This document shows, piece after piece, positions 16,157 to 46,074 of a stretch of 63,405 bases of DNA. This DNA is from a virus (Duplodnaviria > Caudoviricetes), in IMG/VR virus record IMGVR_UViG_3300032285_003896, positions 1-63,405 of that record, one strand, 5' to 3'. Below the pieces are notes generated by a model. It had not been told where the DNA came from. It saw nothing but the letters and a program-made list of their open reading frames with translations, and did not search any database. Each line of letters begins with the position of its first letter. The first letter of the stretch is position 1. The position numbers and the translations under genes are program-made.

Positions 16157-16774
16157 ATGATCATACATACAATATGGATAGGATCTGAGATACCTGTTAG
16201 ATACCATGGTAACTTAGATAGACTCAGGATCTTAAATCCAGGCTTTCAACACATACATTGGGGACAAAATGATATAATCAATATTTTGACATATTTCAAT
16301 TTAATAGAATTATATAACTCTATGCCTAGTTTTATAACTAAATTAAATTTAGCAAAGTATTTAATACTAGATAAATTTGGCGGCATATTCACAGACTTAG
16401 ATATAGAATGGAAAAAGTCATTTATAGAAATTATGAATGATCAGCAGTTTAATGATATAGATATATTACTAACACATCCAGCAGATACTCCACATTACTA
16501 TATAAATAATCAACAGGTTTATCTTTTAGATGATCCATTTATTATAGCTAGACCAAATCTACTTAGTCAATGTGTTGACTTTAGATTTAAAAGAGAGTTA
16601 AGAATAGATCCAAAAACAAAAGCTATACATAAAGCAGAACCTATAGGTCCTTTTCTATTAACAGAGTGGATCTATACTAATCAAATAAGGCACAGTGCAT
16701 TTAGCCAAACTGCATTTTTAAGTCTAAACGGTCTTTACGGATATCATCAACAGTTAGATCTGTGGAATAAATAA
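16157..16774 (+). CDS. GT32/OCH1-like glycosyltransferase
   Basis: IIHTIWIG...LNP...KYLILDKFGGIFTDLD (DxD)...IGPFLLT. Confidence 0.8.
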   Translation: MIIHTIWIGSEIPVRYHGNLDRLRILNPGFQHIHWGQNDIINILTYFNLIELYNSMPSFITKLNLAKYLILDKFGGIFTDLDIEWKKSFIEIMNDQQFNDIDILLTHPADTPHYYINNQQVYLLDDPFIIARPNLLSQCVDFRFKRELRIDPKTKAIHKAEPIGPFLLTEWIYTNQIRHSAFSQTAFLSLNGLYGYHQQLDLWNK

Positions 16775-19132: not shown

Positions 19133-19936
19133 ATGTCAAAATTATCAATGTCAGCTATCAGCCCAATCAGTTTAGAAACAGCAAGAGAACAAGCACCAGC
19201 TATCTTCGCAACCTCACCGGCTCCTACAATCAAGAGTCCTAAGTATCAGTTCACACCTACCTTCGAGGTTATTGACCATATGAAGAATATGGGTTATGAG
19301 TTAACAGCTGCTAAGCAGTCTAGATCTGGAGTAGACCTCCGTAAGAATTGGGGTATCCACATCACTGAGTTCCAACATCCTGATCTATACATCAAGGATC
19401 CTCAAGGTGATATCGAGGCCCGTCCAACAGTTGTGTTGATCAACTCACATGACGGTACACGTCCACTTCAATTTGAGATGGGTCTCTTCCGTCTTGTATG
19501 TTCTAATGGTCTGATCATCAAAGACAAAGACCTAGGATCATTCCGTGAGAGGCACACTAAGTACAACTTCCAAGAGGTAAAGGACCTGATCGATTCAAAG
19601 GTATCTGGACTCCAAGACGTTGTAGGTAAGATTAGCCAATGGAATATGGTAGAGATGACAGACAAACAAAGGTATCAGTTTGCTGTAGAAGCCTTGGCCT
19701 TAAGATTGAATACTGATCGTCAGCCTGAACAGTACGAGGTATTAGATATCCTTAATGCTAAACGTAAGGTAGATGCCCAACCTACACTATGGCACACCTA
19801 CAATACCGTACAGGAGAACCTGATCAAAGGTGGCTTCCAATTGAACAATAGGCAGGCTAGGGCTATCAAAAACCCTGTAGAGGATCTAGTTCTTAACCAA
19901 GGCCTATGGCAGCTAGCCGATGCTTACGCTAACTAG
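19133..19936 (+). CDS. DUF932 (DUF945-like) family protein
   Basis: LINSHDG...GLFRLVCSNG...LWHTYNTVQENLIKGG...LNQGLWQLA. Confidence 0.9.
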   Translation: MSKLSMSAISPISLETAREQAPAIFATSPAPTIKSPKYQFTPTFEVIDHMKNMGYELTAAKQSRSGVDLRKNWGIHITEFQHPDLYIKDPQGDIEARPTVVLINSHDGTRPLQFEMGLFRLVCSNGLIIKDKDLGSFRERHTKYNFQEVKDLIDSKVSGLQDVVGKISQWNMVEMTDKQRYQFAVEALALRLNTDRQPEQYEVLDILNAKRKVDAQPTLWHTYNTVQENLIKGGFQLNNRQARAIKNPVEDLVLNQGLWQLADAYAN

Positions 19937-22956: not shown

Positions 22957-23409
22957 CTATTCTAAGTCCTTTCTGTAAAATCTGCCCTGTATATTATCAT
23001 TATAGGAATCTATACGAAGTACATCAAATTTCATTTGCCAATAAACTTCCCAATAAGTAAGTTGTTTTTTAGAGTAGCACAATTGAAGGATCTCTCTAGT
23101 GAATATTTCGTTTCCTAATTCCTTTCTTTCTAAGTTTAAATTCTTATTACTTCCATAATAAGTTAGCCAGTCACTTTCTTTAGTGACTTTCTTCTTCTTT
23201 GGGACGCGCCCAGGTTTGATCCAGGCCTCTGTTTCCTTTTTGGTTAATGTTTTATTAGTATTGTTATAAAGAACCTTTCTACCTATGTAGAATCGATTCG
23301 TGATAATGTTTGTTACCCTATATATAAAGCCAATTGCATTCTCTGGAAAATCTTCTATCTTCTTGAATTCTCGATAGCTTCCAAGTGCATCTACATAAAA
23401 CCATTTCAT
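22957..23409 (-). CDS. GIY-YIG nuclease (T4 EndoII/DenA-like)
   Basis: GFIYRVTN...YIGRK...ESDWLTYYGS...REIL...YNDNI. Confidence 0.8.
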   Translation of the reverse strand: MKWFYVDALGSYREFKKIEDFPENAIGFIYRVTNIITNRFYIGRKVLYNNTNKTLTKKETEAWIKPGRVPKKKKVTKESDWLTYYGSNKNLNLERKELGNEIFTREILQLCYSKKQLTYWEVYWQMKFDVLRIDSYNDNIQGRFYRKDLE

Positions 23410-23419: not shown

Positions 23420-23725
23420 TTAACTATCCCATCTGACTATGAAAGTCATATCTGTATTTTGTGGGATGGGATACGGTCTTGATAATTTTCCTACTACTAA
23501 AAGTTCATCTTGATCATTATATAATCCAACCATAGTAGTGTATGGATGAAAGTCTGATCCTGTTACTGCGTCTATATAAGATCCTGATGTACCTGCTTTA
23601 TTTGCGCTAGGATTTAATGTGTAGTTAAAATCATTCTCATCAACATGACATCTAATCTCATTTTGATAAATGGTAGATTCAGCAACGAATGATACAGTAA
23701 AAGGTTTATAGGGAATAATAGCCAT
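23420..23725 (-). CDS. tail-collar/baseplate-like C-terminal domain as a stand-alone ORF
   Basis: YTTMVGLYNDQDELLVVGKLSRP aligns with the C-terminus of 36487..37521. Confidence 0.7.
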   Translation of the reverse strand: MAIIPYKPFTVSFVAESTIYQNEIRCHVDENDFNYTLNPSANKAGTSGSYIDAVTGSDFHPYTTMVGLYNDQDELLVVGKLSRPYPIPQNTDMTFIVRWDS

Positions 23726-23739: not shown

Positions 23740-26124
23740 TTAGTTCTCACGTCTTTCTTCAGGACTATAATGAGCAATTCTATTATGATTTATTGGACTA
23801 GCTAATAATATCGCGGGTTTAAGATTTCCTTTTTTAGTTTCTTGAAACATATAACTCATCCAAGTTTGTTCATAAGGATTTGCCCATACAGTATCTAAAA
23901 ACATTTTTTGATTTCCTTTCTTATTAGTTATAGTTGGCCAATTACAGTAGTATATATCACCAGTAATATAACTTAATCCATCAATAACTTCTATTTTATC
24001 AAATTTAGTTCTAGGAGAATCTGGATCTAAACCTGTTATTGGTAGTTTATCATATGTTGGCCAAAATTCTGATCTAATAGATTGAGGAACATTGTACCAA
24101 GAAACCTGAATATTATTATCCATGTAAACTTCAGTATAAGACAGCTTAAGAAAATCTATATCCGAAGATTCCATTATTTTTAATGCTTTAGTATATAAAT
24201 CTGGTACATGGGTTCTAAAACCGTTTCTACAGTATCCATCTACAGGTTCATGTATTCCCATATCGTCTTCTAAAAAAATATAGTAATCGCTATCTGATTC
24301 TTGGAAGTGCTGAGCGGCTCTAAAACGTCCTCCATTTATTCCTGTATTTTCATTAGTTATGATATGTTCAAAATTATACTTCTTACAAATTTCTGCGTTA
24401 GCTAATCTCGCTTCATCATTAGTAGAATTATCTATCAAAATATTTCTAGTATCTGTTATCCACTTAGGATGCTTAAGCCATGTTTGTATGGTATATTCTA
24501 ATTGATGAGGAAAATTAAATGTTAACATATACAATGACAGTTTTAATTTTTTTGTGTCAATGTATTTTCTAATAATTTTTATTTCATTTTGTGGTATGTC
24601 TTCTAACTCTACTTTATCATCTAATAGAGCTTGAACAAATTTAACTATTAAACCATTGTAATCTAAAGCGTATCTTCTATATGTATTAGGTTCTAGGTAA
24701 GACATTATAGTAAATATACTCTCTTCAGTTCCCATATATCCAGATCCTAAAGATCTTTGTAATATAGCATAATACGTAGAATTAGCTTGATTTATTATTT
24801 CTTTTCTACCACCAAATAAACCCCCTCTACAAACATGTTCAACTTTTTTTCCAGCATATTCATTAATAGCAGAGTAATTAAATCCATGAATTTCATTTAC
24901 TGCGTCATAAGGATAACTTAAAAATAAAAATGATTCTAAGTATGGAAGTATTTTATCTAACGCTTTATTATCTGTAAAATATTTTTCATATACGCTATTA
25001 GTAATACCTGCATCTAACCAAATAAAATGATTAGTATCAAAAGGGTTCCATATAGTAACATCATTAAGCATAAACATCTTAGATTGAACTATTGGATTAT
25101 ACCATTCTAATGAGGCTTGAGGACTTGTTTTTAACCAACCTCCTTCGCCTGTTTGATTATACCAATCTGGATTGTTTCTTACTTTTTGTGTTTGATCCCA
25201 AAAAGGAGCATATAAATTTTTTACATCTTCTAATTCATACACTTTAACAAACGTATTTTCTTTAGATCTTTTTTGCCAAACTAAATATTCATATTCTTTA
25301 GGAATATAGATAAACATATTAACATCAATATCTAAAAATTTATTGAAGTTTTCTATGTAGTGACTAAAATCTCTATTAGGCCTTCCTATATTCCAAAGAC
25401 CAGTAACCACAGTTAAATCTAAATTAGATTTTTTTGATTCAATAGGTTTTAAATTTTGTACATATTCTTTAACTTTTTGTATATCCCACAAAGCTAAAAC
25501 TTTTCTATTTCCATTTTCAAAATTATCGACTCTAACATCTTCCTCTAAATATACATCAGCATCAGGAAAATTAAATGGAGATGCCATTAAATTAACTGGA
25601 TAAAATCTCCCAAAATCTACACCTTCGTTTTCTCTATGAACATCATTAGGATTACACCTACTCCAACCTTGATCTGTTTTTTTAGCCCATGTAGTACTTA
25701 AAAGATATTTACAATTTGATCTTAAAATATTTTCTACTATTTTTTTTCCTTCTTCAATAGGAAAGTGTCCTATAATATCTCTGACAATTAATAGATCTGA
25801 TTCTGGTATATCGTCTTTTACTAAATCAAAATTAATAAATTTTATTCTTGGACTATTATACTTTTCATTATTTTGTTGAATACATTTATCTACTATATCA
25901 CCGCCAATGTAACTCTCAAAATTAAAAACAATTTCTTTCATCCAATGAAAGTCTCCGCACGGAATGTCAACTACAGATTTAATATTTTTTTGTAATACTA
26001 ACTCTTTTATTTTTTCTCTAAGTAATTTAGTTTCTTCTAATGTACTGCCAGGACCAGATCTACTTTCAGTACTACCAAAACCAAATGTATCATATATGTT
26101 AGAAAATGTTTCTTTATATTGCAT
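23740..26124 (-). CDS. fusion of SAM methyltransferase, HtrL/YibB-like domain and GT-A glycosyltransferase
   Basis: SGPGS...VVDIPCGDFHW (MTase); TVVTGLWNIGR, IWLDAG, GGLFGG, GTEE (HtrL-like); IDNS...IFLEDD (GT2-like). Confidence 0.75.
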   Translation of the reverse strand: MQYKETFSNIYDTFGFGSTESRSGPGSTLEETKLLREKIKELVLQKNIKSVVDIPCGDFHWMKEIVFNFESYIGGDIVDKCIQQNNEKYNSPRIKFINFDLVKDDIPESDLLIVRDIIGHFPIEEGKKIVENILRSNCKYLLSTTWAKKTDQGWSRCNPNDVHRENEGVDFGRFYPVNLMASPFNFPDADVYLEEDVRVDNFENGNRKVLALWDIQKVKEYVQNLKPIESKKSNLDLTVVTGLWNIGRPNRDFSHYIENFNKFLDIDVNMFIYIPKEYEYLVWQKRSKENTFVKVYELEDVKNLYAPFWDQTQKVRNNPDWYNQTGEGGWLKTSPQASLEWYNPIVQSKMFMLNDVTIWNPFDTNHFIWLDAGITNSVYEKYFTDNKALDKILPYLESFLFLSYPYDAVNEIHGFNYSAINEYAGKKVEHVCRGGLFGGRKEIINQANSTYYAILQRSLGSGYMGTEESIFTIMSYLEPNTYRRYALDYNGLIVKFVQALLDDKVELEDIPQNEIKIIRKYIDTKKLKLSLYMLTFNFPHQLEYTIQTWLKHPKWITDTRNILIDNSTNDEARLANAEICKKYNFEHIITNENTGINGGRFRAAQHFQESDSDYYIFLEDDMGIHEPVDGYCRNGFRTHVPDLYTKALKIMESSDIDFLKLSYTEVYMDNNIQVSWYNVPQSIRSEFWPTYDKLPITGLDPDSPRTKFDKIEVIDGLSYITGDIYYCNWPTITNKKGNQKMFLDTVWANPYEQTWMSYMFQETKKGNLKPAILLASPINHNRIAHYSPEERREN

Positions 26125-26129
26125 AAAAA

Positions 26130-26942
26130 TTATTTTGAATAACCATGATCTATAAAAATTTTATATAAATTATTTCCATTATCACTAACCTCAGTTTGTC
26201 TAAATATATTACATCCTTCATAAGATTCGTGATGAGTATGTCTTAATACAGGAAATGTAGACACTCCTCCGCCATTTATCCAGTCATCAAAAGTAGGAAA
26301 ATTAGGTATTGATTCGTGTGTTTCAACTATTCTATCTCTTTTTTTACTAGAAAAATAAGCTGCCATTAATATATCATCTGCCCAAGAATAATACTCTTTT
26401 ACAAAATCAAAAAAATCTTCTTCAAAATAACGTCTTTTATATGATACTGTTTTATAATGCTGAATTATATCTACTCTGATACTTATTTTTTGGGATGTGA
26501 AATAGTAGTCTCTACTATCACCAAAATTAGATGCAAAATTTCCATTTTCGTCTCTAGATCTCATTCCATCATATCCAACAATACCTTCTTGCCATTTATT
26601 TTGATTTTCAATTTGAGTCTTTACCATATCAGGATCATAAACTAGGTCATCATCAACTACAATTATTATAGTTTCAGGATCAGTTATTCTTTGTACTGTT
26701 GGTATTAATTTAGTTGCTGGACCTAAATCTTCTGTTCTAAAAATTTTAATTTTACTGCACTCCTCTAACCATTCAGGAATAATATATTCTTCTCTAGTTA
26801 AATTATTAATATAAGGAATATTAAAATGTATTTCATAATCATCATAATTTTGATTAATTAATGAATTAATACATAATTTTATTCCTTGATCATCTAATAC
26901 TGAAAGCCTTGAAGGTATTGTTGTTAGTGTTACTATTGCCAT
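26130..26942 (-). CDS. GT-A fold glycosyltransferase
   Basis: VTLTTIPSR...DLGPATKL...IIVVDDD...ADDI. Confidence 0.8.
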   Translation of the reverse strand: MAIVTLTTIPSRLSVLDDQGIKLCINSLINQNYDDYEIHFNIPYINNLTREEYIIPEWLEECSKIKIFRTEDLGPATKLIPTVQRITDPETIIIVVDDDLVYDPDMVKTQIENQNKWQEGIVGYDGMRSRDENGNFASNFGDSRDYYFTSQKISIRVDIIQHYKTVSYKRRYFEEDFFDFVKEYYSWADDILMAAYFSSKKRDRIVETHESIPNFPTFDDWINGGGVSTFPVLRHTHHESYEGCNIFRQTEVSDNGNNLYKIFIDHGYSK

Positions 26943-26951
26943 ATTTTTTAA

Positions 26952-27875
26952 TTAATTGTAATTCCAAAGTTGACCTCTACTTATATAAAAAGATTTTAGT
27001 CTTTCATAATTTATTTTTATAAATTCCTCTTTACTTTCTAATGTACAAATAAAATCTCCTTGACACCAATTCCAAAATCTATCTTCTGGAAATGTTAGTA
27101 TAGAAAACCCTCTATTTACTTCAAAGGTAAGTGATGCTACATCTATATCTAATATAGAATGAACTATAGATTGAATGGGTTCATTATTTACTGCCCAAAT
27201 TCCATGACGGCCTAAAATAAATAAATCTTCACGGTTATTTACTAATATTTCGTAGACTATATTATTAAAAATATCTAAATAATTTTTTATATTATTTTTA
27301 TTTTTAAAAGTATAGCAAAAAAAGTTGCCATCATTAGAATATAATCTAGGATTTAATTGTTGATAATTATTTTCTTTAATAATTATATTAGCTAAATCAC
27401 CAAATCTATCTGTAAAATCATAACCTCCATTTCCTATTACCATATCTTTATTTAAAGAACTGAAAGAATTTTTTATAGAGTCATATATTAACTGATCAGC
27501 TTTACATTCAATATCGCAATTGCAAACAAAAATAGCATCATACTTTTCTATTTCTGGTAAGCAGAATACAAATCTCCATATAGAACCAGGTATTACCCAA
27601 TCTTTTTCAAGTACATATGTAGCGTATTCTTTTTCATTTAATGTTTTTATTGGTAATTTTTCGTACTCAATAGACCACGGATAATCCTTTCTTAATTCAT
27701 CAATATCTTTTATTATTATATTTTTGTAACTTTCTAATGATTTAAATATAGGATCTTCTTTCATATCCGTCATAATAAGGACATCAAATAAAGAATAACT
27801 TTCTATATTTTTTAAAATACTATAAACTATACGATTTCTAAATGTTGGACCTATTGTATAATATACTAGAAGCAT
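26952..27875 (-). CDS. putative glycosyltransferase-like protein
   Basis: Island context; MTD and CDIE motifs; DIDELRKDYPWS shared with its neighbour. Confidence 0.45.
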   Translation of the reverse strand: MLLVYYTIGPTFRNRIVYSILKNIESYSLFDVLIMTDMKEDPIFKSLESYKNIIIKDIDELRKDYPWSIEYEKLPIKTLNEKEYATYVLEKDWVIPGSIWRFVFCLPEIEKYDAIFVCNCDIECKADQLIYDSIKNSFSSLNKDMVIGNGGYDFTDRFGDLANIIIKENNYQQLNPRLYSNDGNFFCYTFKNKNNIKNYLDIFNNIVYEILVNNREDLFILGRHGIWAVNNEPIQSIVHSILDIDVASLTFEVNRGFSILTFPEDRFWNWCQGDFICTLESKEEFIKINYERLKSFYISRGQLWNYN

Positions 27876-27891
27876 TATTTATTTTTTTAAT

Positions 27892-28908
27892 TTATATATT
27901 TTTATGTTTAATAATAATATTATTATTTTCTGTTATGTTATACGTAGCATGTGTTGCATGATTATTATAATAATTTATTAAAGCATCTTTATTCTTTTTG
28001 ATATATTCTTCAGTTGTAAACACTGTTTCATTTTTATTAGGAGGTAAAAGATTCCAATTAGGAAGCATATTAGAATAATACCATGAATCATGCGGTGTTG
28101 ACATATGAAATCCTAATGTATCATCTTCCCAATAGTGAAGACGATTTTTTATTTTATAATTAAAATTAATTTCAAAAATTCTTAATAAGTATCCAACTAT
28201 ATCATCTATTTTAGTATACCCATGATTTTTTTGAAAAAAATGATTTTTAATATGTATGTTATCAGAAAAATTATAACAGTAAGTTATATAATCAAAAATT
28301 TCGTAAAATAATTTTATATCTTCTTTATTTTTAAAACTAAAATCACAAGTAAATAATTCACAATACCAATAATCTTCTGGAATGGTTAACTGTGGAAATT
28401 TACTTTTTAATAGATTTCCTATATGACCAAATATCGGTGATGAGTATGTTTCATCCATAGGACCTATATGAGGAATACCAAGTACGCCCTCAGGAATTTT
28501 TTTAAAAAAGTTATCTATAATTTTTTGTTGGTTGGTTATAAAAACATTATTTCCTACATAACTAAATTTTAAAATATTATTTTCGTACATATATGGAAAC
28601 AAAAATCTCATCGTACAAAAAGGAAGTAGGCTATTTTTTTGTTTATAAAATTGATGAAAATTTTTGGCATATAATTCTGGATCTTTTTCTTTATAATGAA
28701 CTTCAATATCATTAGTACTCCACGGATGATTTTTTCTGGCATCTTCTATATCTATAATAGTTAGAAGATTTTTATAAGGTTCGTATAGTTCATAGTTATC
28801 TACTAAATAGATATAATTATGTGTGGTCTCTTTATTATTTTCTATAAATGGTAGAAACCTAGTTTTAAAATGTACCGATCCAAATACTTGCCTTATAAAT
28901 TTACTCAT
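27892..28908 (-). CDS. putative glycosyltransferase-like protein (paralog of 26952..27875)
   Basis: DIEDARKNHPWS motif; island context. Confidence 0.4.
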   Translation of the reverse strand: MSKFIRQVFGSVHFKTRFLPFIENNKETTHNYIYLVDNYELYEPYKNLLTIIDIEDARKNHPWSTNDIEVHYKEKDPELYAKNFHQFYKQKNSLLPFCTMRFLFPYMYENNILKFSYVGNNVFITNQQKIIDNFFKKIPEGVLGIPHIGPMDETYSSPIFGHIGNLLKSKFPQLTIPEDYWYCELFTCDFSFKNKEDIKLFYEIFDYITYCYNFSDNIHIKNHFFQKNHGYTKIDDIVGYLLRIFEINFNYKIKNRLHYWEDDTLGFHMSTPHDSWYYSNMLPNWNLLPPNKNETVFTTEEYIKKNKDALINYYNNHATHATYNITENNNIIIKHKNI

Positions 28909-29603
28909 ATTTGATTTTTTAAAAAGACAGTTTGTCTACCCCATAATACTTTAACATAATTATTTTCAAGTAAATAAGGAGTTAGTAATTTGTCTTTACC
29001 AGCGCTATCTGTATTAAAATCAGTATCATCAATAGAAATAATATGTAAATCTGATAATTTATTTTGAGCAGCTAAAAAAGCTTCTAAATGTCTTTCTGCA
29101 TATTCATGAGTTCCTTTATCCCAGCCATCTAAAAAAAGAAAATCAATTTTTTTATCAAAGTCTTTTAAAAATTGAATACCATCTTGAGGAATACAGATAT
29201 GTAAATTATCTGGAATTGGTTCTTTTATATGATATTGATATTGTTTTTCTAGTTCTGTTTTACAATGTTCATCAATATCTACGGTGTAAACATCAAATCC
29301 TTCTCTAGCCCAAAAATAAGTTGAATGCCCATCTTGACAACACGGAGGTGCATCTTTACTTTCTAAATTAATAGAATTATTATAATAATTAATGCATGAT
29401 TGAGTTAACTCTCTTCTTGTTGATCCAATTTCTACTACAACTTTAGCATCGATTATTTTTAATAGTTCAATTGTTTTTGTTATCCATGGAGCTGGGTAAT
29501 TTCTAATGCTATTTTCTTCATGAGTTAAAACATCATGAGTCCAATAATAAGTGTTTTTTTTAAAACTATCACATGCTTTTAAAACTTCAATAAATTTATT
29601 CAT
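28905..29603 (-). CDS. class I SAM-dependent methyltransferase (Methyltransf_24-like)
   Basis: VVEIGS...YTVDID...IDFLFLDG...ISIDD...GK. Confidence 0.8.
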   Translation of the reverse strand: MNKFIEVLKACDSFKKNTYYWTHDVLTHEENSIRNYPAPWITKTIELLKIIDAKVVVEIGSTRRELTQSCINYYNNSINLESKDAPPCCQDGHSTYFWAREGFDVYTVDIDEHCKTELEKQYQYHIKEPIPDNLHICIPQDGIQFLKDFDKKIDFLFLDGWDKGTHEYAERHLEAFLAAQNKLSDLHIISIDDTDFNTDSAGKDKLLTPYLLENNYVKVLWGRQTVFLKNQI

Positions 29604-29606
29604 ATA

Positions 29607-30878
29607 CTATATTATTTCTTCTTTACGTTCACACCACCCTCTTTCATTACTATATCCCCATAGTACTAATCTAGATGGTTTTTTATTTACTAAAAATATT
29701 TCTTCAAAATCAAAATAACCTGATTCAGTACTTAATACTCTTTTTATATAATCTTTTTCTAAATTTCTTACATATATAGGTTTACCTGCTTCATCATCAA
29801 ATGCCATATGAATAAATTCATAATCATCAAAAGGAAAATCAGTTTTATATAATTTTACTAAATGATAAAATGATTGTGTAAAAGATAATTCCCATAAACT
29901 GTCATCTTTGATAAGAGGATTAGGAGGGTACTTATTATCTAAAGTATATTGCTGAACTGATTTATTTTTAAAATGAAAACCTGCGTATTTTTCGTAGTCT
30001 CGTAAACTTCTAACTGTTCCTAAATCATATCCTGTTAAGTCTATATTTGGATCTTCTTCTGTTCCTAATAAAACTCTTATTTTTTTTCTAGCATATTCTT
30101 GTTTATTCCACCAATCTACTCCTAATTTAGAATCATCATCCCATTTTAACATACCTGATCTTTCTTCACGCATAGTAGAATGCCACACTACTAATTTATG
30201 TGGATGAAATAAATCATACCCATGAGTATATGATCTTACTGTTAAATTTAATTCTTCACCTGAAAAATAGATATCTGGATCGTGTCTTATTTCTTTAGCC
30301 CACTCTGATCTTGCAAAACAAAAATGCCCTGATAAAAATCTACTCATTGGAGGTTCCGTCATAGTCTCCCATCCTGTAAGTAAGCCTGGTCTAATGAATA
30401 TCGTTCCATGAGGATAGAAGCAAGCAAAATGCTGTTGCCACGGCTCCATTGTGCGGCCACCAGGATCATCAAATGGTGTATATAATGGTAGATAGGCTGC
30501 AAGAATTGGTTTGTAACCACGAGCCTCTAAACCACTATGCATATCTATTAAAGTCTCATCCCAATCTTTAGCAAATCTATGATGTGAATCTAATTGACAA
30601 ATGTAATCTTCATCTGTTAATAATTTTTCGTTTATAATGGCTCTTGCCCAAGGAAGTCCTTGAGCTTCATTATATAAACACTCATAAATTTTAAATCGAG
30701 TATCTCCTTCAAATTCAGATAAATCATCAAATTTATCATCAGGATGATATTGTCTACAAATACCAAAATGTATTCTTTTTGGATATTTAGCATTTGCTAA
30801 TGCGTCTTTAATAGTAGGAATTAATTCTGGATCTCTGTAAGCCGGTAAATGTACTAGTATTGTTTTTTTCTTATTCAT
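29607..30878 (-). CDS. GT60-like (Skp1/polypeptide) alpha-GlcNAc transferase
   Basis: AYRDPEL, QLDSHHRF (DxH), FSGEE, SYTHGYDLFHP, GTVRSLRDYEKYAG. Confidence 0.85.
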   Translation of the reverse strand: MNKKKTILVHLPAYRDPELIPTIKDALANAKYPKRIHFGICRQYHPDDKFDDLSEFEGDTRFKIYECLYNEAQGLPWARAIINEKLLTDEDYICQLDSHHRFAKDWDETLIDMHSGLEARGYKPILAAYLPLYTPFDDPGGRTMEPWQQHFACFYPHGTIFIRPGLLTGWETMTEPPMSRFLSGHFCFARSEWAKEIRHDPDIYFSGEELNLTVRSYTHGYDLFHPHKLVVWHSTMREERSGMLKWDDDSKLGVDWWNKQEYARKKIRVLLGTEEDPNIDLTGYDLGTVRSLRDYEKYAGFHFKNKSVQQYTLDNKYPPNPLIKDDSLWELSFTQSFYHLVKLYKTDFPFDDYEFIHMAFDDEAGKPIYVRNLEKDYIKRVLSTESGYFDFEEIFLVNKKPSRLVLWGYSNERGWCERKEEII

Positions 30879-32127
30879 ATTCTATAACTTGATCTATTCT
30901 TTCTAACCAACCTTTTGATTCACTATGAGGCCAAACTCTCCAAGAATACGGTTGTTTATTATCTTCGTAATCTCTCCATATGTGTATAAACTGATCATTT
31001 TTATCTTGACTAAATAAAGATATAATTTCACTTTTATCGCAATCTTTTCTATATACGTCATTACCATTTTCATCTAAAAAGGCTACAGCAAATGAATCAT
31101 AATCAGATTCAGTAAGAGATCCTTTATATACATCTATACAATGTTTTATTCTTGATGCTAAACCTGATTCATAATCTCCTTTTATTGGAGGAAAATTATT
31201 TTGTATAGTCTCAACATGAATTTGTCTAGTACTAAATTTTAATCCGGCATATTTTTCAAAATCTTCTAAAGATCTTGTAGTTCCAAAATAATTTGGAGCT
31301 AATGCTCTTCTAGTGCATGAAGAACAACCTGGATCCATTCCCATTAATTTTCTATATCTTGCATAAGAAGCATCATCTCTTTGTTTCCAATCTCCTGAAT
31401 CATCCCAATGTTTTTTCTTTCCTTCTCTTGTATATTCATGCCAAATTACAGGTTTATGAGGAGAAAAAAGATCATACCCAAATGTATAAGCTCTAGCGGC
31501 TAAAGAACTTTCCTCACCATGAAAATATAATTCAGGATCATAAGGAACTTCTATAGGAAACGATCCTAAAGTAAAAATAAAATGTGCAGAGATAAATCTT
31601 GACGGGAAAGGTTCTTTTAAATCTTCCCAATTATCTACGTGATGAGGAGCTAAAAATATTGCACCTCCAGGCATAAACCTATCTATATTCAATCCCCAAA
31701 CTTCATTAACCCTACCTTTTGGATCTTTATCTGGATAATATCCTGGTATATAAGCTGATAATAAAGGTTTTTCGTGGCCTTTACATTGTAAATAGTGCAA
31801 ATAATCCTTTATTGTAATATCCCAATCTTTACTAAATCTATGATGAGAATCTAATTGTAAATAATATTTTTCTCCATTATAATTTTTTTGGATTTCTGAC
31901 CTCATCCAGCAAACTCCTTTAGCTTCTTTATAAGGAATATCTAATATAATAAATCTTGGATCATCTTTATATAAATCTAAAGTATCCCAAGTATCTTGTT
32001 CTGCATGTTGCCAACCAATACAAATAGTTAAATCTTGTGGATTAGCACAATTCTCTAATAAGTTATTTATAGTAGGGAGTAATTCAGGGTCCCTATAGGA
32101 GGCTATCGAAACAAAAATTTTTGACAT
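30871..32127 (-). CDS. GT60-like (Skp1/polypeptide) alpha-GlcNAc transferase
   Basis: IFVSIASYRDPEL, YYLQLDSHHRF, VPYDP, FHGEE, RAYTFGYDLFSP. Confidence 0.9.
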   Translation of the reverse strand: MSKIFVSIASYRDPELLPTINNLLENCANPQDLTICIGWQHAEQDTWDTLDLYKDDPRFIILDIPYKEAKGVCWMRSEIQKNYNGEKYYLQLDSHHRFSKDWDITIKDYLHYLQCKGHEKPLLSAYIPGYYPDKDPKGRVNEVWGLNIDRFMPGGAIFLAPHHVDNWEDLKEPFPSRFISAHFIFTLGSFPIEVPYDPELYFHGEESSLAARAYTFGYDLFSPHKPVIWHEYTREGKKKHWDDSGDWKQRDDASYARYRKLMGMDPGCSSCTRRALAPNYFGTTRSLEDFEKYAGLKFSTRQIHVETIQNNFPPIKGDYESGLASRIKHCIDVYKGSLTESDYDSFAVAFLDENGNDVYRKDCDKSEIISLFSQDKNDQFIHIWRDYEDNKQPYSWRVWPHSESKGWLERIDQVIEYE

Positions 32128-32130
32128 AAC

Positions 32131-32171
32131 TTAAATATACTAAATTAATTTGATATAAAAAAATTTATTTT
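32131..32171 (-). promoter_or_regulatory. host-type promoter of the glycosylation island
   Basis: Minus strand AAAATAAATTTTTTTATATC...TATATTTA. Confidence 0.6.
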
Positions 32172-35100
32172 AAGGAGCTGGGCAATACTCAAAATACTGT
32201 CCTTTAGCACCAAAATCTATTACTGTAGCTCTTACATATAAAGTAAGATTTCCAGTTATTGTAATGCTAGATCCAAGTCCTGGTCCAGCACTAAATGGTT
32301 TACCACATCCTGGTGTAGCTGCAGCAGCGCAACTGGAATTCAATCCATAATTGTAATATACTCCATTATCTGAAGAATTACTACCTCCAAAATATAGAGT
32401 ATCTCCGTATTTTAAACCGGTAATTGTTCCTAATAAAGTACATGTTACGGTATTAAGCGATCCACCTAATTGAGTTACAGTAGGACCTGCTGTAGTATAA
32501 TAGAATTTCCATGAATCTGTTGGAGTAGGACTTGTTATTGCTACATCTTGGTTAGCATATACCGTTACAGTATATCTAGGAGATGATGGAGTTATACTAG
32601 GAGTCTTAGTTATACTAGGCGTTTTACTTACAGTAGGAGTAGGTGATGGAGCGACAGGACAATCAGTATAATTTCCTGATCCATCAATGTTAGCAGTGAA
32701 TGCTAATTGAGTACCTGTAGTTATTACATAAGATGCATAACAAGATGTTCCGCCATTTGCAGGACATGTTGTAGTACCACTAACAGAATCAAATTGTACT
32801 GGTGCTGATGTAACATCATGAAGTAGTCTAAAATATACTAATGTACCACTTGGTACAGATAATCCTGTCATTGATCTACATATAGTATCGTTATTAACAG
32901 TAGGAAGCATACTGGACCAAGGACCATTTACGCCGACGGTAGAATATTGAAGTTTAAATGCATCCGATGTTGGTGTAGCTCCATTAGTAGCTTTTATAGC
33001 TGGAGTTACAATTGGAGGACTCGCTGAAATACTTGGAGTTACACTAGGCGTCTTAGATGGAGTTGGCGTTGGTGATGGACATACAGCTGTTGATGTTATA
33101 GTTCCATTTCCATCTATTTGGCCATATATACTACCGTCTGAATAATACCCAATAGGAGCGTAATTAGCTGATGATAGAGGATGTGTAAGCACAGTATATA
33201 ATGTATCTCCTACTCCAAAAGTTGAACTATATGAATAATAAGTTGTTCTAGATGCTATACACGCAGAATAAGGAGACGATGAACTATATCCTAAACTGAA
33301 TGAGTATATTGTTGGCTCTGATTGAGAAGGAGACAAAGATATACTAGGAGTAGGAGTAGGCGATTTAGTAACTGTTATACTAGGAGTCTTAGTTAAACTA
33401 GGTGTTACTGATGGAGTTCTACTAATCGTTATACTAGGAGTCTTAGTTAAACTAGGTGTTACTGATGGTGTTTTAGTAACACTAGGCGTAGCTGTTAAAC
33501 TTGGTGTTGTAGTTATACTAGGTGTTAAACTAGGAGTTATACTAATACTAGGAGTGACACTAGGAGTAGCTGATATCGATGGAATAGTTGTACAATCAAC
33601 AACGTCTACTATTATACCATTTACGTTTACCTGTACTGCCCAAGTACTTGATCCTTTAGTAAATAAAAACCAACCATTAGAACCTATAGTAGGAGCCCAA
33701 TTAGTTGATAATCCTAAATTAGTATAAAGTTGCTGTAGTGTAGTAGGTATAGTGTAAACAGGACTTTGATAAATAGTACCATTATTGGCTGATCCTACAC
33801 GACAGGCAGTTGTATAATCTATGAAATCTGTATTAGATATAACAAACGCAGTCGGTGGAGTAGATATACTAGGAGTTACTGTTGGTGTTATACTAGGTGT
33901 AATTGTTAAACTTGGTGTTATACTAGGTGTAATTGTTAAACTTGGAGTTATAGATACGCTAGGTGTTATACTAGGCGTAGCTGTTAAACTAGGTGTTTTA
34001 GTAATACTAGGTGTTATAGTTACGCTAGGTGTTATAGATACGCTAGGTGTTAAACTAGGGGTAGCTGTTATACTAGGCGTTGCTGTTAAACTAGGTGTTA
34101 TAGATATACTAGGTGATACACTAGCTGCCGGTGAAGAACTAGGTGTTATAGATACACTAGGGGTAGCTGTTATACTAGGCGTTATAGATACACTAGGTGT
34201 TAAACTAGGCGTTTTAGTAATACTAGGTGTTATAGTTACACTAGGCGTTATAGATACACTAGGTGTTAAACTGGGGGTAGCTGTTATACTAGGCGTTATA
34301 GATACACTAGGTGTTAAACTAGGAGTAGATGTTATACTAGGTGTTAAACTAGGGGTAGCTGTTATACTAGGTGTAGCTGTTAAACTAGGTGTTATAGATA
34401 CACTAGGTGTTATACTAGCTCCTGGTGAAGAACTAGGTGTAGCTGTTATGCTTGGTGTCGCTGTAATACTAGGCGTAGCTGTAATACTAGGCGTAGCTGT
34501 TAAACTAGGTGTAGTTGTAATACTAGGTGTAGCTGTTATGCTAGGTGTAGCTGTAATACTAGGAGTTAAACTAGGAGTAGCTGTTAAAGTAGGTGTAGCT
34601 GTAATACTAGGTGTTTTAGTAATACTAGGTGTTATAGTTACGCTAGGTGTTATAGATACACTAGGTGTTATGCTAGGTGTTGTAGTTATGCTTGGCGTAG
34701 CTGTTATGCTTGGCGTAGCTGTTAAACTAGGTGTAGTTGTAATACTAGGTGTGGCTGTTAAACTAGGTGTAGCTGTTATGCTTGGCGTAGCTGTTAAACT
34801 AGGTGTAGTTGTAATACTAGGTGTTAAACTAGGTGTGGCGGTAATACTAGGTGTAGCTGTTAAACTTGGAGTTATACTAGGAGTACGACTTGGAGTTTTA
34901 CTAATAGATATACTAGGTGTTATACTTGGAGTAGCCGATAAACTAGGAGTTAAACTAGGTGTTATAGATATACTAGGTGTTATACTTGGAGTGGGACTAG
35001 GGCTTGGAGCGACTACATATTGTACTGAAAAATTACCATAATCGTAAGGATCAGTATCAACTTCTTTAACATAATTTGTATCATCTGGAACAGTTAGTGG

Positions 35101-35235
35101 ATATCCAGCTAATAATTCGTCTATAGTTACTCCGGTAGCTATTAGTGTATCAAGGCCACCATTATTATAGTATATATCAAATGGGCCGACAACTCCATTA
35201 CCAAAATTAGGATCCAATGTTATTATTATATCCAT
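32170..35235 (-). CDS. mucin-like Thr/Pro/Ser-repeat virion (tail fibre-like) protein
   Basis: About 380 aa of TPS(I/L/V)(T/S)x repeats plus Cys-containing beta-rich modules; late motif variant at 35241; adjacent to tail genes. Confidence 0.75.
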   Translation of the reverse strand: MDIIITLDPNFGNGVVGPFDIYYNNGGLDTLIATGVTIDELLAGYPLTVPDDTNYVKEVDTDPYDYGNFSVQYVVAPSPSPTPSITPSISITPSLTPSLSATPSITPSISISKTPSRTPSITPSLTATPSITATPSLTPSITTTPSLTATPSITATPSLTATPSITTTPSLTATPSITATPSITTTPSITPSVSITPSVTITPSITKTPSITATPTLTATPSLTPSITATPSITATPSITTTPSLTATPSITATPSITATPSITATPSSSPGASITPSVSITPSLTATPSITATPSLTPSITSTPSLTPSVSITPSITATPSLTPSVSITPSVTITPSITKTPSLTPSVSITPSITATPSVSITPSSSPAASVSPSISITPSLTATPSITATPSLTPSVSITPSVTITPSITKTPSLTATPSITPSVSITPSLTITPSITPSLTITPSITPTVTPSISTPPTAFVISNTDFIDYTTACRVGSANNGTIYQSPVYTIPTTLQQLYTNLGLSTNWAPTIGSNGWFLFTKGSSTWAVQVNVNGIIVDVVDCTTIPSISATPSVTPSISITPSLTPSITTTPSLTATPSVTKTPSVTPSLTKTPSITISRTPSVTPSLTKTPSITVTKSPTPTPSISLSPSQSEPTIYSFSLGYSSSSPYSACIASRTTYYSYSSTFGVGDTLYTVLTHPLSSANYAPIGYYSDGSIYGQIDGNGTITSTAVCPSPTPTPSKTPSVTPSISASPPIVTPAIKATNGATPTSDAFKLQYSTVGVNGPWSSMLPTVNNDTICRSMTGLSVPSGTLVYFRLLHDVTSAPVQFDSVSGTTTCPANGGTSCYASYVITTGTQLAFTANIDGSGNYTDCPVAPSPTPTVSKTPSITKTPSITPSSPRYTVTVYANQDVAITSPTPTDSWKFYYTTAGPTVTQLGGSLNTVTCTLLGTITGLKYGDTLYFGGSNSSDNGVYYNYGLNSSCAAAATPGCGKPFSAGPGLGSSITITGNLTLYVRATVIDFGAKGQYFEYCPAP
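33340..33570 (-). repeat. second TPS coding repeat tract
   Basis: TPSV/TPSL/TKTPS units. Confidence 0.8.
33860..35010 (-). repeat. degenerate 12/18-bp coding tandem repeat (TPSI/TPSLTA)
   Basis: Recurrent ACTAGGTGT(T/A) and GCTGTTAAACTAGG units on the + strand. Confidence 0.9.
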
Positions 35236-35254
35236 TTAATATAAATACTTTTTT

Positions 35255-36481
35255 TTATAATGCTCCACATACGTTATAACCTATTATTTTATAGTCATTA
35301 CTACCTATGGTAACAATTTGAGGACTAGATGTTATAGTAGTTCCGTTTACAACTAATGCTGTAGGCTTCCAACTATTAGCTCCTCCATTGGCACATAAAG
35401 GAAGCGTATCTGTAAAAGTTCCATTTGGTGTTCCATTAGGAATAAATAGTTGCGTTGATCCAATAAATGAACATCCACCTAAAAGGGTAGTACAATTAGT
35501 ACCACTATATCTTGATATAGTTCCTGTTATAGTAATATCATCTTTAATATCTCCATTATTATCTGCTTCTGCTAAAACAAATCCACTTCCATTATTAAAA
35601 CCATAAACATATATAGTAGCTTGTATATCTGGTGAAGGACTAGGAGTCACGGTCATAGTAGGTGTAACTGTAGGTGTTGAAGTTACAGTAGGTGTTATTG
35701 TTTTACTCGGTGTTTTAGTCGGAGTAGGTGTTTTACTAGCTCCTGGTGAAGGACTAGCAGTTTTTGTAATCGTTATACTCGGAGTTACAGTAGGAGTCCT
35801 TGTCAGACTTGGTGTTATAGTCGGAGTAGGGGTTTTACTAGCATTTGGTGTAGTACTTACTGTTGGAGTAGGTGTAGGACTTGGACCCGTAGCTACACTT
35901 ATATTAAATGTAAAATTAAAATTTAATATTATCCCGACATAATCAGGATTAGTTATTGTAACTATAGCTTGAGAATATATAATATTTCCTACGTGAACAT
36001 TATTATTAAATGTGTCTACTATATTTCCATTACCATCATCAATAATACTATAAGTTAATCCATCTGTTGAAAGTAACTTAAAAGTTTTTCTACTAATTTG
36101 TTCACCAAATTGAGTCCTTGGGATCGCTAGAAAACTTATATTACTTCCAGTAGCAGAAGGAAAATATCTATAATCATCATCTAAAGTTCCTGAAGCTGCT
36201 GTGGATTGTAAAGAAGAATCCCAATAAGAAGCTGATTGATTACTAACTGAACCGGTTAAATAATTTTGATAATACAGCTGTCTAATTACAGCATAATTAT
36301 TTCTTGCTGTATATGTTGTACTTCCTGGTTTTCCTGCTTTATTAGCAGTATAATATATACCCCTATTAGTAGTTATTCCATTGCTATACAAAGACTGACT
36401 AGCATAGGTATTAGAATACTTTACTTTTATAGGAGTCGAAGAAGCATCTGATTTTTTTATTGTATTCTTCGATCTGCTCAT
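35255..36481 (-). CDS. tail/baseplate protein N-terminal domain with TP-rich linker and beta domain
   Basis: FLAIPRTQFGEQI...DDGNGNI...GNIIYSQ aligns with the N-part of 36487..37521; TPTP repeats. Confidence 0.65.
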   Translation of the reverse strand: MSRSKNTIKKSDASSTPIKVKYSNTYASQSLYSNGITTNRGIYYTANKAGKPGSTTYTARNNYAVIRQLYYQNYLTGSVSNQSASYWDSSLQSTAASGTLDDDYRYFPSATGSNISFLAIPRTQFGEQISRKTFKLLSTDGLTYSIIDDGNGNIVDTFNNNVHVGNIIYSQAIVTITNPDYVGIILNFNFTFNISVATGPSPTPTPTVSTTPNASKTPTPTITPSLTRTPTVTPSITITKTASPSPGASKTPTPTKTPSKTITPTVTSTPTVTPTMTVTPSPSPDIQATIYVYGFNNGSGFVLAEADNNGDIKDDITITGTISRYSGTNCTTLLGGCSFIGSTQLFIPNGTPNGTFTDTLPLCANGGANSWKPTALVVNGTTITSSPQIVTIGSNDYKIIGYNVCGAL

Positions 36482-36486: not shown

Positions 36487-37521
36487 TTACCAATCTAGTT
36501 TTACACGAATAAGTGCTTCCTTAGTAAAGTCTTTTGTTAAAGGCTTTGATAGTTTAGCTACAGCTACTAATTCATTATTATCATTATACATACCTACAGT
36601 TGTTGGATATGTTTGAGGACTATTGATAAAGTTTGAATATATTAATGTTCCCGAACCAGATATAAATGATGGATTAGTTGTGTAGTTATATTCTCCATTC
36701 TTTACTCTTACAAATATATAATCTGAAGAAATTGTTTCTTGAGAATTTAATTGGAAATTTGCTCCTTGACTAATTGCTAGATATATTAAATTATGATTAT
36801 AAGAACTAGCTCCTACAGTATTTGCTGTGCTAAGTGTATAACCTAAACCACCAGCAGTAGTTGCTAATTGTAAAGCTTTCGGATTTAAAACTAATAGTCC
36901 AAGATCAGGAAGCATTAGCCCATAACTTCCGGATGCTGTGTAACCTTTAGCGCTAGCTCCAGATAGTAAAGGACTATTTACAGAAGTTCCATTAGATCCA
37001 GATATGATATCATAAACTCTACCTCCATCTACATAATTTACAGTTGTAACATCATTAGAGTTGTCTGTTAATTTTAAAATAGTTCCAGAACCGTCACTCA
37101 ATTTAAGATTAAATGTACCAGGAAAAAGACTTTCTTTATACCTATTTCTATCTATTGGTATTGCAATTAGATCAACTGATGAAGTATTTCCTGTTCCAAA
37201 GTTTACTGCACTTTCTGCATCTCCATAAATTAAGTTTCTATACTGTCCGAAAGTTATTCTAGAAGGAGTATTTCCAGGGACTAAAGAATTTAAAGGAGCT
37301 GATCCTAAACCTGTATAGTTGCCATAAGCAATAGAGAATTGTACAGATGAAGTTGCTTGAGTTACTGGTGCATTATAAATGTCTATGTAATAACTTCCTG
37401 TTGTACTTGCAGAAGCTGTATAAAATGAAGATAATACAGTAGCTCCGTTACTCCATGCTGGAGCCACAACTGCGTCGGATGATACTACAAAATCTGTTGG
37501 GTCTAATCTTGTGAATGACAT
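36487..37521 (-). CDS. baseplate/tail-collar protein
   Basis: C-terminal TTVGMYNDNNELVAVAKLSKP resembles the tail-collar (DUF3751-like) motif. Confidence 0.6.
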   Translation of the reverse strand: MSFTRLDPTDFVVSSDAVVAPAWSNGATVLSSFYTASASTTGSYYIDIYNAPVTQATSSVQFSIAYGNYTGLGSAPLNSLVPGNTPSRITFGQYRNLIYGDAESAVNFGTGNTSSVDLIAIPIDRNRYKESLFPGTFNLKLSDGSGTILKLTDNSNDVTTVNYVDGGRVYDIISGSNGTSVNSPLLSGASAKGYTASGSYGLMLPDLGLLVLNPKALQLATTAGGLGYTLSTANTVGASSYNHNLIYLAISQGANFQLNSQETISSDYIFVRVKNGEYNYTTNPSFISGSGTLIYSNFINSPQTYPTTVGMYNDNNELVAVAKLSKPLTKDFTKEALIRVKLDW

Positions 37522-45660: not shown

Positions 45661-46074
45661 TTACATATTTTGTATTGTCAAGATAACCGAATCATTTTCA
45701 TTTGATCTTAATAATCTATAACTAAATTTTATATTAATTGAATTATAATCTGGATTTCCTATTATTTCTAATTGAGTTACTTGTATTTGAGGAAAATAAT
45801 TTTCCATCTGAGTCATTATAGACTGTTTTAAATCTTCAAAAGATAGTCTATCAATTTGTTCAAATAACCTAGATCTCAATCCAGCTCCAAAAGTAGGATT
45901 AAATGGTCTTTCTTTAGGGTCTGTTAATAGATAATTTATTATATTATATTTTATCTGTTCCTTTGTAGTATATACAGAAGTAAATACATTAGCAGCCTGA
46001 AAAGGTATTTTAACTCCAATACCTGTTGAAGGTTTAAGATCTAAAGGTGATATTTGTTTTAATCCGTATGCCAT
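45661..46074 (-). CDS. baseplate gp25/GPW-like protein
   Basis: IKYNIINYLLTDPKERPFNPTFGAGLR..LFE. Confidence 0.9.
   Translation of the reverse strand: MAYGLKQISPLDLKPSTGIGVKIPFQAANVFTSVYTTKEQIKYNIINYLLTDPKERPFNPTFGAGLRSRLFEQIDRLSFEDLKQSIMTQMENYFPQIQVTQLEIIGNPDYNSINIKFSYRLLRSNENDSVILTIQNM

Follow-up and report, generated by a model that had tools for sequence, protein, structure and literature searches.

Why would a bacteriophage carry two genes of glycosyltransferase family 60 (GT60) directly downstream of fibre-module proteins that contain Thr-Pro-Ser (TPS) linkers? The question is raised by positions 23740 to 36481 of the IMG/VR record IMGVR_UViG_3300032285_003896, a Caudoviricetes sequence that was analysed over its full length of 63,405 bases (the window). 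An original prediction, made from the letters of the DNA, held that this island encodes a mucin-type O-glycosylation system, in which GT60-like N-acetylglucosamine (GlcNAc) transferases, further glycosyltransferases and methyltransferases decorate repeat-containing appendages of the tail. The two points on which computation could bear, membership of the GT60 family and co-occurrence of GT60 with TPS-repeat genes, were examined and neither spoke against the glycosylation reading, which is thereby supported; the association is in fact broader than had been claimed. From sequence and predicted models, we put the probability that the GT60 pair O-glycosylates the TPS linkers in the cytoplasm at about 0.65.

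The candidate acceptors are the 1021-amino-acid (aa) and 408-aa proteins with which the island begins. All of the open reading frames (ORFs) named in the original prediction were found in place on the minus strand, and its figure of about 380 aa for the T-P-S-(I/L/V)-T/S repeat of the 1021-aa protein agrees with the 386 aa (aa 76-461) that we measured. Within this stretch there are 67 P-S dipeptides, spaced by six residues (44 times, as T-P-S-[ILV]-[TS]-x hexamers) or by four (16 times, as T-P-S-[ILV] tetramers). T (108), S (89) and P (74) together make up 271 of its 386 residues, so that the stretch has the extended tandem repetition and the Thr/Ser/Pro dominance of a mucin-type (PTS) sequence. 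The protein as a whole contains 212 T, 171 S and 134 P, with 83 TPS tripeptides and 60 [TS]PS[ILV][ST] motifs, and tandem repeats in the DNA span 33362-34992. Three shorter TPS linkers (aa ~549-640, 720-741 and 860-886) separate its four Cys-bracketed globular modules, and no Pfam family, signal peptide or membrane segment was found in it. The first of these modules (aa 462-548) recurs in five copies in a 1524-aa protein of loci L008 and L009 and in three copies in a 419-aa protein of L098; its AF2 model (predicted local distance difference test, pLDDT, 90.9) gave no PDB match at E<=0.001 and seven BFVD matches at E<=0.001, all of them uncharacterised phage proteins, including one of Cellulophaga phage phi17:1. 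The 408-aa protein had been described as TP-rich, which applies to a linker of ~87 aa (aa ~199-285). Across the 13 relatives listed, out of 41 matches, the conserved N-terminal domain keeps 47-57% identity and the C-terminus varies; the protein corresponds to phrog_15511, a family of unknown function; judged by sequence, it is a probable fibre or receptor-binding protein.

Two observations on the repeat region stand apart from this. A 406-aa ORF on the plus strand, rich in L, G and V, was rejected as a gene: it is an artefact of the reverse complement of the repeat, and the conserved modules and the operon lie on the minus strand. The GC skew turns positive over the repeat genes (window 32000-36000), which is a by-product of the T/P/S codon repeats.

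The enzymes that might act on these linkers are a tandem pair, GT60-A and GT60-B, which are 38% identical to each other. The assignment to GT60 holds by Pfam (PF11397, matches confirmed at the DNA level), by motifs and by fold, and GT60-A also matches phrog_24687 (E 1.2e-146). The DSH and GEE motifs that had been pointed out are kept in both paralogs: in an alignment of 20 sequences, D93 and H95 are invariant and S94 nearly so, and G204, E205 and E206 (GEE), together with a WDD motif, are invariant or nearly so. The tandem genes represent two conserved paralog classes, A and B, both of which retain DSH, GEE and WDD. The AF2 model of GT60-A (pLDDT 89.9) shows a Rossmann-like alternation of strands and helices, in keeping with a GT-A fold in which DxH replaces DxD, followed by an extra C-terminal beta domain of ~100 aa. 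Compared with the PDB, it bears out the proposed kinship with polypeptide N-acetylgalactosamine (GalNAc) transferases, in that the 36 top-ranked matches are all GalNAc-transferases and GlfT2 does not appear before rank 37; the top folds are the family GT27 enzymes T2, T4, T1, T10, T12 and TgGalNAc-T3 (E 1.5e-11 to 1e-8, identity 12-17%). According to passages of two papers (PMC7185993, PMC8724618), GT27 and GT60 share a DxH motif and polypeptide Ser/Thr O-glycosylation, and GT60 is confined to prokaryotes and protists. A Pfam scan of the pair returned PF11397 and, in GT60-B, GT2 below threshold; no lectin domain of the ricin type was among the matches. Modelled together, GT60-A and GT60-B gave an ipSAE of 0.76, where the best of three controls gave 0.00, with contacts that agreed 100% between runs and a partner pLDDT of at least 86; the modelled interface joins residues 104-117 of A to residues 300-334 of B. 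A value of 0.76 is reached by 58 of 80 solved complexes and by two of 110 mismatched pairs, both being rough counts because custom alignments were used. Binding of GT60-A to GT60-B is thus supported at the level of predicted models.

Among close relatives of the phage, linker type and enzyme family vary together. The comparison was anchored on the 344-aa structural protein that borders the island upstream, and the best 80 of its 544 relatives were taken. An initial filter that demanded proline divided the 34 loci with at least 8 kb of downstream sequence into 26 with neither feature, seven with TPS linkers and GT60, one with TPS linkers only and none with GT60 only. Because this filter missed the poly-Thr linkers of GT60-negative relatives, the loci were re-scored with a poly-Thr class. 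In 45 loci with at least 5 kb downstream, there were then 26 with no linker and none of these enzymes, seven with TPS linkers and GT60 only, 11 with poly-Thr linkers and a ~318-aa family that we call U318 (six of these also with GT6-like or GT2 enzymes), and one, L096, with a mixed linker, U318 and a Fringe-like enzyme. When 38 rows with at least 8 kb downstream were compared, 11 combined TPS linkers with GT60, nine combined poly-Thr linkers with U318, one had a mixed linker with U318 and 17 had neither linker nor enzyme; no row was discordant for GT60. On the tree of these rows the three linker/enzyme states require 11 changes, and the nearest neighbours of the window are one without linker or enzyme (L034) and one of the poly-Thr state (L035). 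The partition is clean, yet statistically it rests on a handful of swaps. In its smallest form, at L100, the cassette consists of one TPS protein and one GT60.

The poly-Thr loci provide a parallel case. U318 accompanies poly-Thr linkers in 12 of 12 such loci, and the independent contrasts between the two go the same way in three of three. The family has a DCD motif and 3579 database relatives, all annotated as 'hypothetical'; it has no Pfam match, a PDB search with its profile was also empty, and a profile-profile comparison found no relation to GT60 (probability 0.1%). We consider U318 a candidate for a new polypeptide glycosyltransferase. The poly-Thr linkers themselves were seen in fibre-module proteins of GT60-negative relatives at L035 11046-18106, L038 2397-5842 and L052 11059-15549.

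Does the pairing extend beyond this group of phages? A strong association between GT60 and repeat genes, which the original prediction had expected across relatives, was also found in viral loci at large, in whole genomes and in bacteria. A profile search revealed at least 588 viral stretches with a GT60 relative, and in the best 80 loci a T/P/S-rich ORF was present in 45. Such an ORF ended within 500 bp upstream of GT60 in 24 of 79 loci; per kb and locus, 0.61 such ORFs fell in this interval and 0-0.09 in the others. Once the loci were dereplicated at 90% identity, it was adjacent in 17 and present anywhere in the locus in 33 of 57 loci, and at 70% identity in 10 and 18 of 28. In records G001-G003 the GT60 cluster is not beside a TPS gene, yet TPSITPS-type proteins are encoded elsewhere on the contig. 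The GT60-positive genomes G009 and G010 have one and five TPS-repeat ORFs above a bar of 40 residues; no such ORF was found in the GT60-negative relatives G007 (158 kb, complete) and G006 (108 kb), and none above the bar in G008 (103 kb), which has one stretch of 35 residues.

The bacterial search gave 303 relatives of GT60, of which the best 80 loci, drawn from many phyla, were examined. A Pro-Thr (PT)-rich ORF lay within 10 kb in 36 of them, and directly upstream on the same strand, with a gap of at most 61 bp, in 12; the density of such ORFs was 0.38 per kb per locus directly upstream and ~0.009 at 4-10 kb. Ten of the upstream PT proteins were scanned, and the nine with a Pfam match contained domains as different as an Rv2525c-like hydrolase, fn3, BNR, PqqD, laminin-G and VgrG. 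No other domain is shared by these proteins; on sequence evidence, the PT stretch is what they have in common.

Several of these loci deserve mention in their own right. In Gemmatimonadaceae, the gene immediately upstream of a GT60 homolog encodes a small protein that combines PqqD, a domain for peptide recognition, with a PT-rich tail (L178 8510-9235, L186 9314-9955); the arrangement may represent a glycosylated peptide system. A VgrG-type spike of Ralstonia sp. (Phage_GPD and gp5 C-terminal domain; L243 12267-15131) has a long PT repeat, and a GT60 homolog is encoded ~1 kb away on the other strand. Both cultured jumbo phages that bear GT60 encode a giant protein of ~3100-3250 aa with a PT-rich segment of ~50 aa, 8-9 kb from GT60 (L032 21505-25347 in Xanthomonas phage Xoo-sp13; L322 30678-40094 in Stenotrophomonas phage RAS14, where the protein is WAX21643.1, of 3,138 aa, ~9 kb from GT60); these are possible cultured test systems. 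Finally, in a contig labelled as a giant-virus metagenome-assembled genome, a single GT60 adjoins an 874-aa ORF with a run of PT dipeptides (L031 11281-13905, minus strand).

Downstream of the GT60 pair lie the enzymes that might elaborate the first sugar. Of the further GT-A or HtrL-like enzymes that had been predicted, we could substantiate an HtrL_YibB domain in the 794-aa protein and a GT2 domain in the 270-aa protein; the paralogous 338-aa and 307-aa proteins are not HtrL-like, have no family in a Pfam scan and are leads by predicted structure. The two predicted methyltransferase domains fared unequally, since PHROG recognises the one at the N-terminus of the 794-aa protein strongly (phrog_3382, E 3.7e-34) and Pfam weakly, and that of the 232-aa protein (phrog_24975, E 3e-15, unknown function) stays below the Pfam cut-off. 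Because the HtrL_YibB domain passes the Pfam cut-off (47.2, cut-off 24.1) and misses the score of the NCBIfam equivalog (49.5, with 264.9 needed), its sequence marks it as a domain relative and not an ortholog; a third domain of the same protein matches GT2 weakly (18.8, cut-off 23.3), and a PDB sequence search with the protein gave nothing useful. Its C-terminal ~560 aa are a conserved core partner of the GT60 pair, present in nine of the 11 relatives examined (L012, L020, L022, L023, L024, L025, L026, L028 and L029). Homologs of the 307-aa protein occur in the L012 and L020 clusters, and those of the 270-aa protein in the L020, L026, L028 and L029 clusters. In related GT60 clusters, carbamoyltransferase and FkbM methyltransferase genes replace or accompany the methyltransferases of the window. 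The carbamoyltransferase genes, of the NodU/CmcH type, lie in or beside the clusters at L012 15234-16916, L022 13394-15010 and, in Xoo-sp13, L032 13399-15696; their presence suggests carbamoylated sugars and a varied decoration of the glycan.

Neither membrane segments nor signal peptides were found in the nine island proteins (the maximum 19-residue hydropathy is 1.25), for which reason the predicted chemistry must be cytoplasmic and direct and not lipid-linked. A Pfam scan of the island revealed no flippase, polymerase or lipid-carrier transferase.

How, then, might the island work? The 408-aa and 1021-aa proteins would supply the mucin-like T-P-S-[ILV]-[TS] linkers. The soluble enzymes GT60-A and GT60-B, which probably work together as a pair, would initiate by transferring an N-acetylhexosamine directly onto linker Thr/Ser inside the host during infection. 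A polypeptide acceptor is predicted from co-occurrence with T/P/S-repeat genes in genomes, and by analogy with the family, the sugar would most likely be alpha-GlcNAc from host UDP-GlcNAc. The sugar may then be extended by the 338-, 307- and 270-aa enzymes and the HtrL/GT-A part of the 794-aa protein, and capped by the two methyltransferase domains. If the decorated proteins are incorporated into the virion, the product would be a stiff, protease-resistant bottle-brush stalk that either holds the small binding modules off the baseplate or shields them. Since the pairing of GT60 with TPS repeats recurs in hundreds of other phages and bacteria, these phages probably do coat part of the tail with sugars.

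Several points weigh against this proposal. Its support consists of sequence, predicted models and genomic co-occurrence, and co-occurrence inside one mobile island can reflect hitch-hiking. On supported branches of the tree there are only four TPS-GT60 contrasts, of which three to four go the same way and none the opposite way (sign-test p ~0.125). A T/P/S-rich ORF is lacking from the fetched locus in 35 of the 80 viral GT60 loci, and a PT-rich ORF within 10 kb is lacking in 44 of the 80 bacterial ones; G004 has only a T-rich repeat and G005 (17% complete, a 45-kb contig) none, and the upstream fibre genes of L010, L012, L024 and L028 are S/T/A-rich but proline-poor. Because PDB sequence searches with GT60-A or with the 20-sequence profile found nothing useful, the fold link rests on a predicted model, and the modelled A/B complex could reflect a general dimer interface of the GT60 family. 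PHROGs places the GT60 family in the category 'moron, auxiliary metabolic gene and host takeover', and HtrL/YibB takes its name from a lipopolysaccharide (LPS)-core locus. Lastly, the L020 cluster abuts a family-B DNA polymerase gene (L022 and L024 have a similar ~860-aa gene there, which was not scanned), and the Xoo-sp13 cluster lies near replication genes, between RNase H/NUDIX and carbamoyltransferase genes.

Some of these points would fit an explanation in which the enzymes glycosylate other virion proteins, such as the capsid or the tail tube or sheath, as in mycobacteriophages; the TPS linkers would then be simple flexible spacers, carried along on one and the same mobile island. The sole phage precedent of virion glycosylation that we met, through a citation, concerns capsid and tail tube; besides the 35 viral loci without a T/P/S-rich ORF, some clusters lie far from fibre genes. 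Against it, linker type tracks enzyme family exactly in 38 relatives with the same capsid and tail backbone, and bacterial GT60 genes are found directly after PT-rich genes of unrelated domain content. GT60-negative whole genomes also lack TPS repeats. We regard this explanation as unlikely.

It is quite improbable, in our judgement, that the cluster remodels envelope glycans of the host (LPS, capsule or exopolysaccharide) during infection, for instance as a block to superinfection. The PHROG category and the HtrL/YibB and GT2 matches would suit such a role, which is how the large glycosyltransferase sets of cyanophages are usually read in a passage of PMC12801897. However, the soluble nature of all nine proteins and the lack of the flippase, polymerase and lipid-carrier transferase families from the Pfam scan speak for another kind of chemistry, the GT60 fold matches polypeptide transferases first, and the tight pairing with T/P/S-repeat genes would be left unexplained.

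Hypermodification of phage DNA with sugars, as a defence against restriction, has the replication genes beside the L020 and Xoo-sp13 clusters in its favour, and phage glycosyltransferases that act on DNA are well known, as cited in a passage of PMC12619734. But the thymidylate-synthase-family genes do not track GT60, being present in the GT60-positive G009 and G010 and in the GT60-negative G007, the fold neighbours are polypeptide transferases and the cluster of the window sits in a fibre module, which makes this explanation very improbable. Least credible is a Skp1-style reaction in which the repeats would receive GlcNAc on hydroxyproline and not on Thr/Ser, for although one GT60 branch is, in a passage of PMC8724618, the likewise soluble cytoplasmic Skp1 hydroxyproline GlcNAc-transferase, and prolines number 74 among the 386 repeat residues, the 2OG-Fe(II) oxygenase family PF13640 (the sole family searched, with positive controls; a host enzyme is possible) is absent from the window and from the near-complete, GT60-positive G009 and G010.

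Glycosylation of the tail linkers by the GT60 pair would also be consistent with where the island lies. The window is an entire IMG/VR record, of an estimated completeness of 39% and a G+C content of ~30%; no tRNA was found in a scan of its 63,405 bases, and megablast of 20 kb of it against 50,697 cultured phage records gave no match. On the minus strand, 51971-22957 forms the baseplate and fibre module of a myovirus. The closest cultured relative is Flavobacterium phage vB_FspM_immuto, in which the gene order is the same and identities are 45% (baseplate protein), 77% (219-aa protein) and 51% (344-aa protein, matching the immuto gene that follows the 219-aa homolog); a Bacteroidota host is therefore a reasonable guess. 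In relatives, the order is 219 aa, 344 aa, 408-aa family, variable genes, 101 aa and 150 aa (GIY-YIG), and a gene of the 408-aa family invariably comes next after the 344-aa gene. In L034, whose 344-aa protein is 81% identical, nothing separates the 408-aa homolog from the 101-aa gene; the 101-aa protein is 77-95% identical in L034, L035, L038 and L052 and 52-66% in L096 and L100. The genes between these conserved borders vary among relatives, and immuto has genes annotated as tail fibre and tail spike at the same position; 23740-36481 is therefore a cassette that can be exchanged within the receptor-binding region, part of the tail-fibre module of an immuto-related myovirus.

Some further features of the record were noted. 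The 101-aa protein at the end of the island resembles the C-terminus of the 344-aa protein at its start (39% over 70 aa), and in immuto a domain matching it terminates a 357-aa protein. The SegE-like GIY-YIG gene that flanks the variable island is conserved in relatives both with and without the cassette, and the endonuclease could promote exchange of the adjoining cassette. A scan for promoters and terminators was uninformative: promoter-like sites numbered 86 where 95 were expected, and no terminator within the operon was convincing.

Table 1. Positions in the 63,405-base window of the island genes, their borders and other features.
Feature	Position	Strand	Basis or remark
408-aa protein: N-terminal ~190-aa domain, TP linker, variable Cys-containing C-terminal domain	35255..36481	-	Composition profile
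1021-aa mucin-like protein: small N-terminal domain, 386-aa TPS repeat, four globular modules	32170..35235	-	Composition
Main T-P-S-[ILV]-[TS]-x repeat (aa 76-461), proposed acceptor region	33853..35010	-	Repeat count
Cys-bracketed ~85-aa beta module (aa 462-548), first module of the 1021-aa protein	33592..33852	-	Recurrent phage module
406-aa antisense ORF, L-G-V rich (rejected as a gene)	33821..35041	+	Wholly inside TPS repeat
GT60-A, polypeptide HexNAc (N-acetylhexosamine)-transferase-like GT-A enzyme	30871..32127	-	PF11397, 214.7 bits, cut-off 21
GT60-B, tandem paralog	29607..30878	-	PF11397, 168 bits, cut-off 21
232-aa probable S-adenosylmethionine-dependent methyltransferase	28905..29603	-	Methyltransf_24, 22.4 bits, below cut-off 26.3
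338-aa GT-A-like protein (lead only)	27892..28908	-	Atlas neighbours GT8/Nucleotid_trans-like, template modelling (TM) score 0.43-0.62
307-aa GT-A-like protein (lead only)	26952..27875	-	Atlas neighbours GT8/GT15-like, TM 0.55-0.66
270-aa GT2-family glycosyltransferase	26130..26942	-	PF00535, 33 bits, cut-off 23.3
794-aa three-domain protein: methyltransferase (aa ~16-196), HtrL/YibB-like (aa 236-480), weak GT2-like (aa 530-622)	23740..26124	-	
344-aa conserved structural protein, upstream island border	36487..37521	-	544 relatives in viral contigs
101-aa conserved protein, downstream island border	23420..23725	-	Conserved in relatives
gp25-like wedge protein	45661-46074	-	In baseplate/fibre block
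gp6/J-like protein	43802-45658	-	In baseplate/fibre block
SegE-like GIY-YIG endonuclease	22957-23409	-	93.4 bits
Extra glycosyltransferase (Gly_transf_sug, DXD type), outside the island among early-type genes	16157-16774	+	42.3 bits
UvdE UV-endonuclease	9758-10651	+	213.6 bits
Zeta-toxin-family kinase-like protein	54747-55532	+	43.4 bits
DUF932 protein	19133-19936	+	

How does the proposed system compare with those already known? The protist GT60 enzymes (mucin-type in Dictyostelium and Trypanosoma cruzi, and Skp1 Gnt1) resemble those of the phage in PF11397, in the DxH motif, in a GT-A fold closest to GT27 and in a Thr/Ser/Pro-rich acceptor-like partner, and the phage enzymes are soluble, as is the cytoplasmic Skp1 enzyme. 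They differ in that the enzymes described here are of phage or bacterial origin, occur as conserved A and B paralogs in tandem, have an additional beta domain of ~100 aa at the C-terminus, carry no signal anchor and have no prolyl hydroxylase partner that the PF13640 search could find. The GT27 polypeptide GalNAc-transferases of metazoans and apicomplexans are the best structural matches, share DxH, initiate on dense Thr/Ser/Pro mucin domains and act as several isoforms on one substrate; unlike them, the phage enzymes, at 12-17% identity, have no ricin-type lectin domain by Pfam and are not Golgi membrane proteins.

Among prokaryotic systems, the serine-rich-repeat adhesins of Gram-positive bacteria receive O-GlcNAc in the cytoplasm, on long Ser/Thr repeats, from the paralogous GtfA and GtfB, followed by extension by GT-A enzymes. 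GtfA and GtfB have a GT-B fold (GT4), GtfB is non-catalytic, and the product is a stalk-like adhesin exported via accessory Sec. A paralogous initiating pair, GT-A extension and a stalk-like product would be common to that system and the one proposed here, in which, by contrast, both paralogs are of GT-A type and keep the catalytic motifs. Chloroviruses and mimivirus likewise encode their own soluble enzymes for glycosylation and sugar methylation, including the three-domain GT/GT/MT (glycosyltransferase and methyltransferase) protein of the A064R type. The likeness extends to virus-encoded glycosylation and methylation enzymes that include a three-domain protein; those viruses, however, are eukaryotic and use other glycosyltransferase families and acceptors, and the 794-aa protein has no sequence or PDB match to their enzymes. 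In mycobacteriophages, Freeman et al. in 2023 reportedly described virion glycosylation, with glycans at the C-termini of capsid and tail tube subunits. Phage glycosyltransferases, often with methyltransferases, lie beside structural genes there and modify virion proteins in the cytoplasm, a description that follows in part the citing text of PMC12619734. The island described here shares with that system phage-encoded glycosyltransferases beside structural genes, and a position between conserved tail-module genes, and differs in its proposed acceptors, which are long internal TPS linkers of fibre-module proteins, and in its GT60 initiator. In its proposed way of working, the island comes closest to protist mucin-type initiation, to serine-rich-repeat adhesins and to mycobacteriophages. 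Three features set it apart from all of these: the combination of enzyme and acceptor, the arrangement of A and B in tandem, each with an additional C-terminal domain, and the fact that linker type and enzyme family are exchanged jointly, as a cassette. Our search of the literature, supplements excluded, found no report that connects GT60 with T/P/S-repeat proteins of phages or bacteria; in one preprint, GT60 is named in a list of viral auxiliary genes and is not analysed further.

A more general scheme, which we hold only tentatively, is a widespread, modular 'linker code' by which phages and bacteria would direct mucin-type O-glycosylation in the cytoplasm, in which each flavour of low-complexity linker has its own initiating enzyme family (GT60 for T-P-S and PT, U318 for poly-Thr), such pairs are swapped as cassettes in receptor-binding modules, and GT60 is a prokaryotic or phage invention ancestral to the protist mucin-type and Skp1 enzymes.

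To our knowledge, glycosylation of phage-particle proteins is known experimentally from very few systems. If our proposal is true, an abundant group of aquatic phages (at least 588 viral contigs bear GT60, and the 344-aa backbone gene has 544 relatives) makes mucin-like glycoproteins on its host-recognition apparatus with enzymes of its own, which would bear on host range, on protease resistance, on stickiness to particles and on the behaviour of such proteins in structural and proteomic work. It would also provide a first function for the prokaryotic branch of GT60, together with a simple genomic rule for its substrates, namely a PT- or TPS-rich gene directly upstream, and compact, soluble tools with which designed linkers might be glycosylated in bacteria. 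These phage and bacterial enzymes would then be candidate ancestors of eukaryotic mucin-type O-glycosylation.

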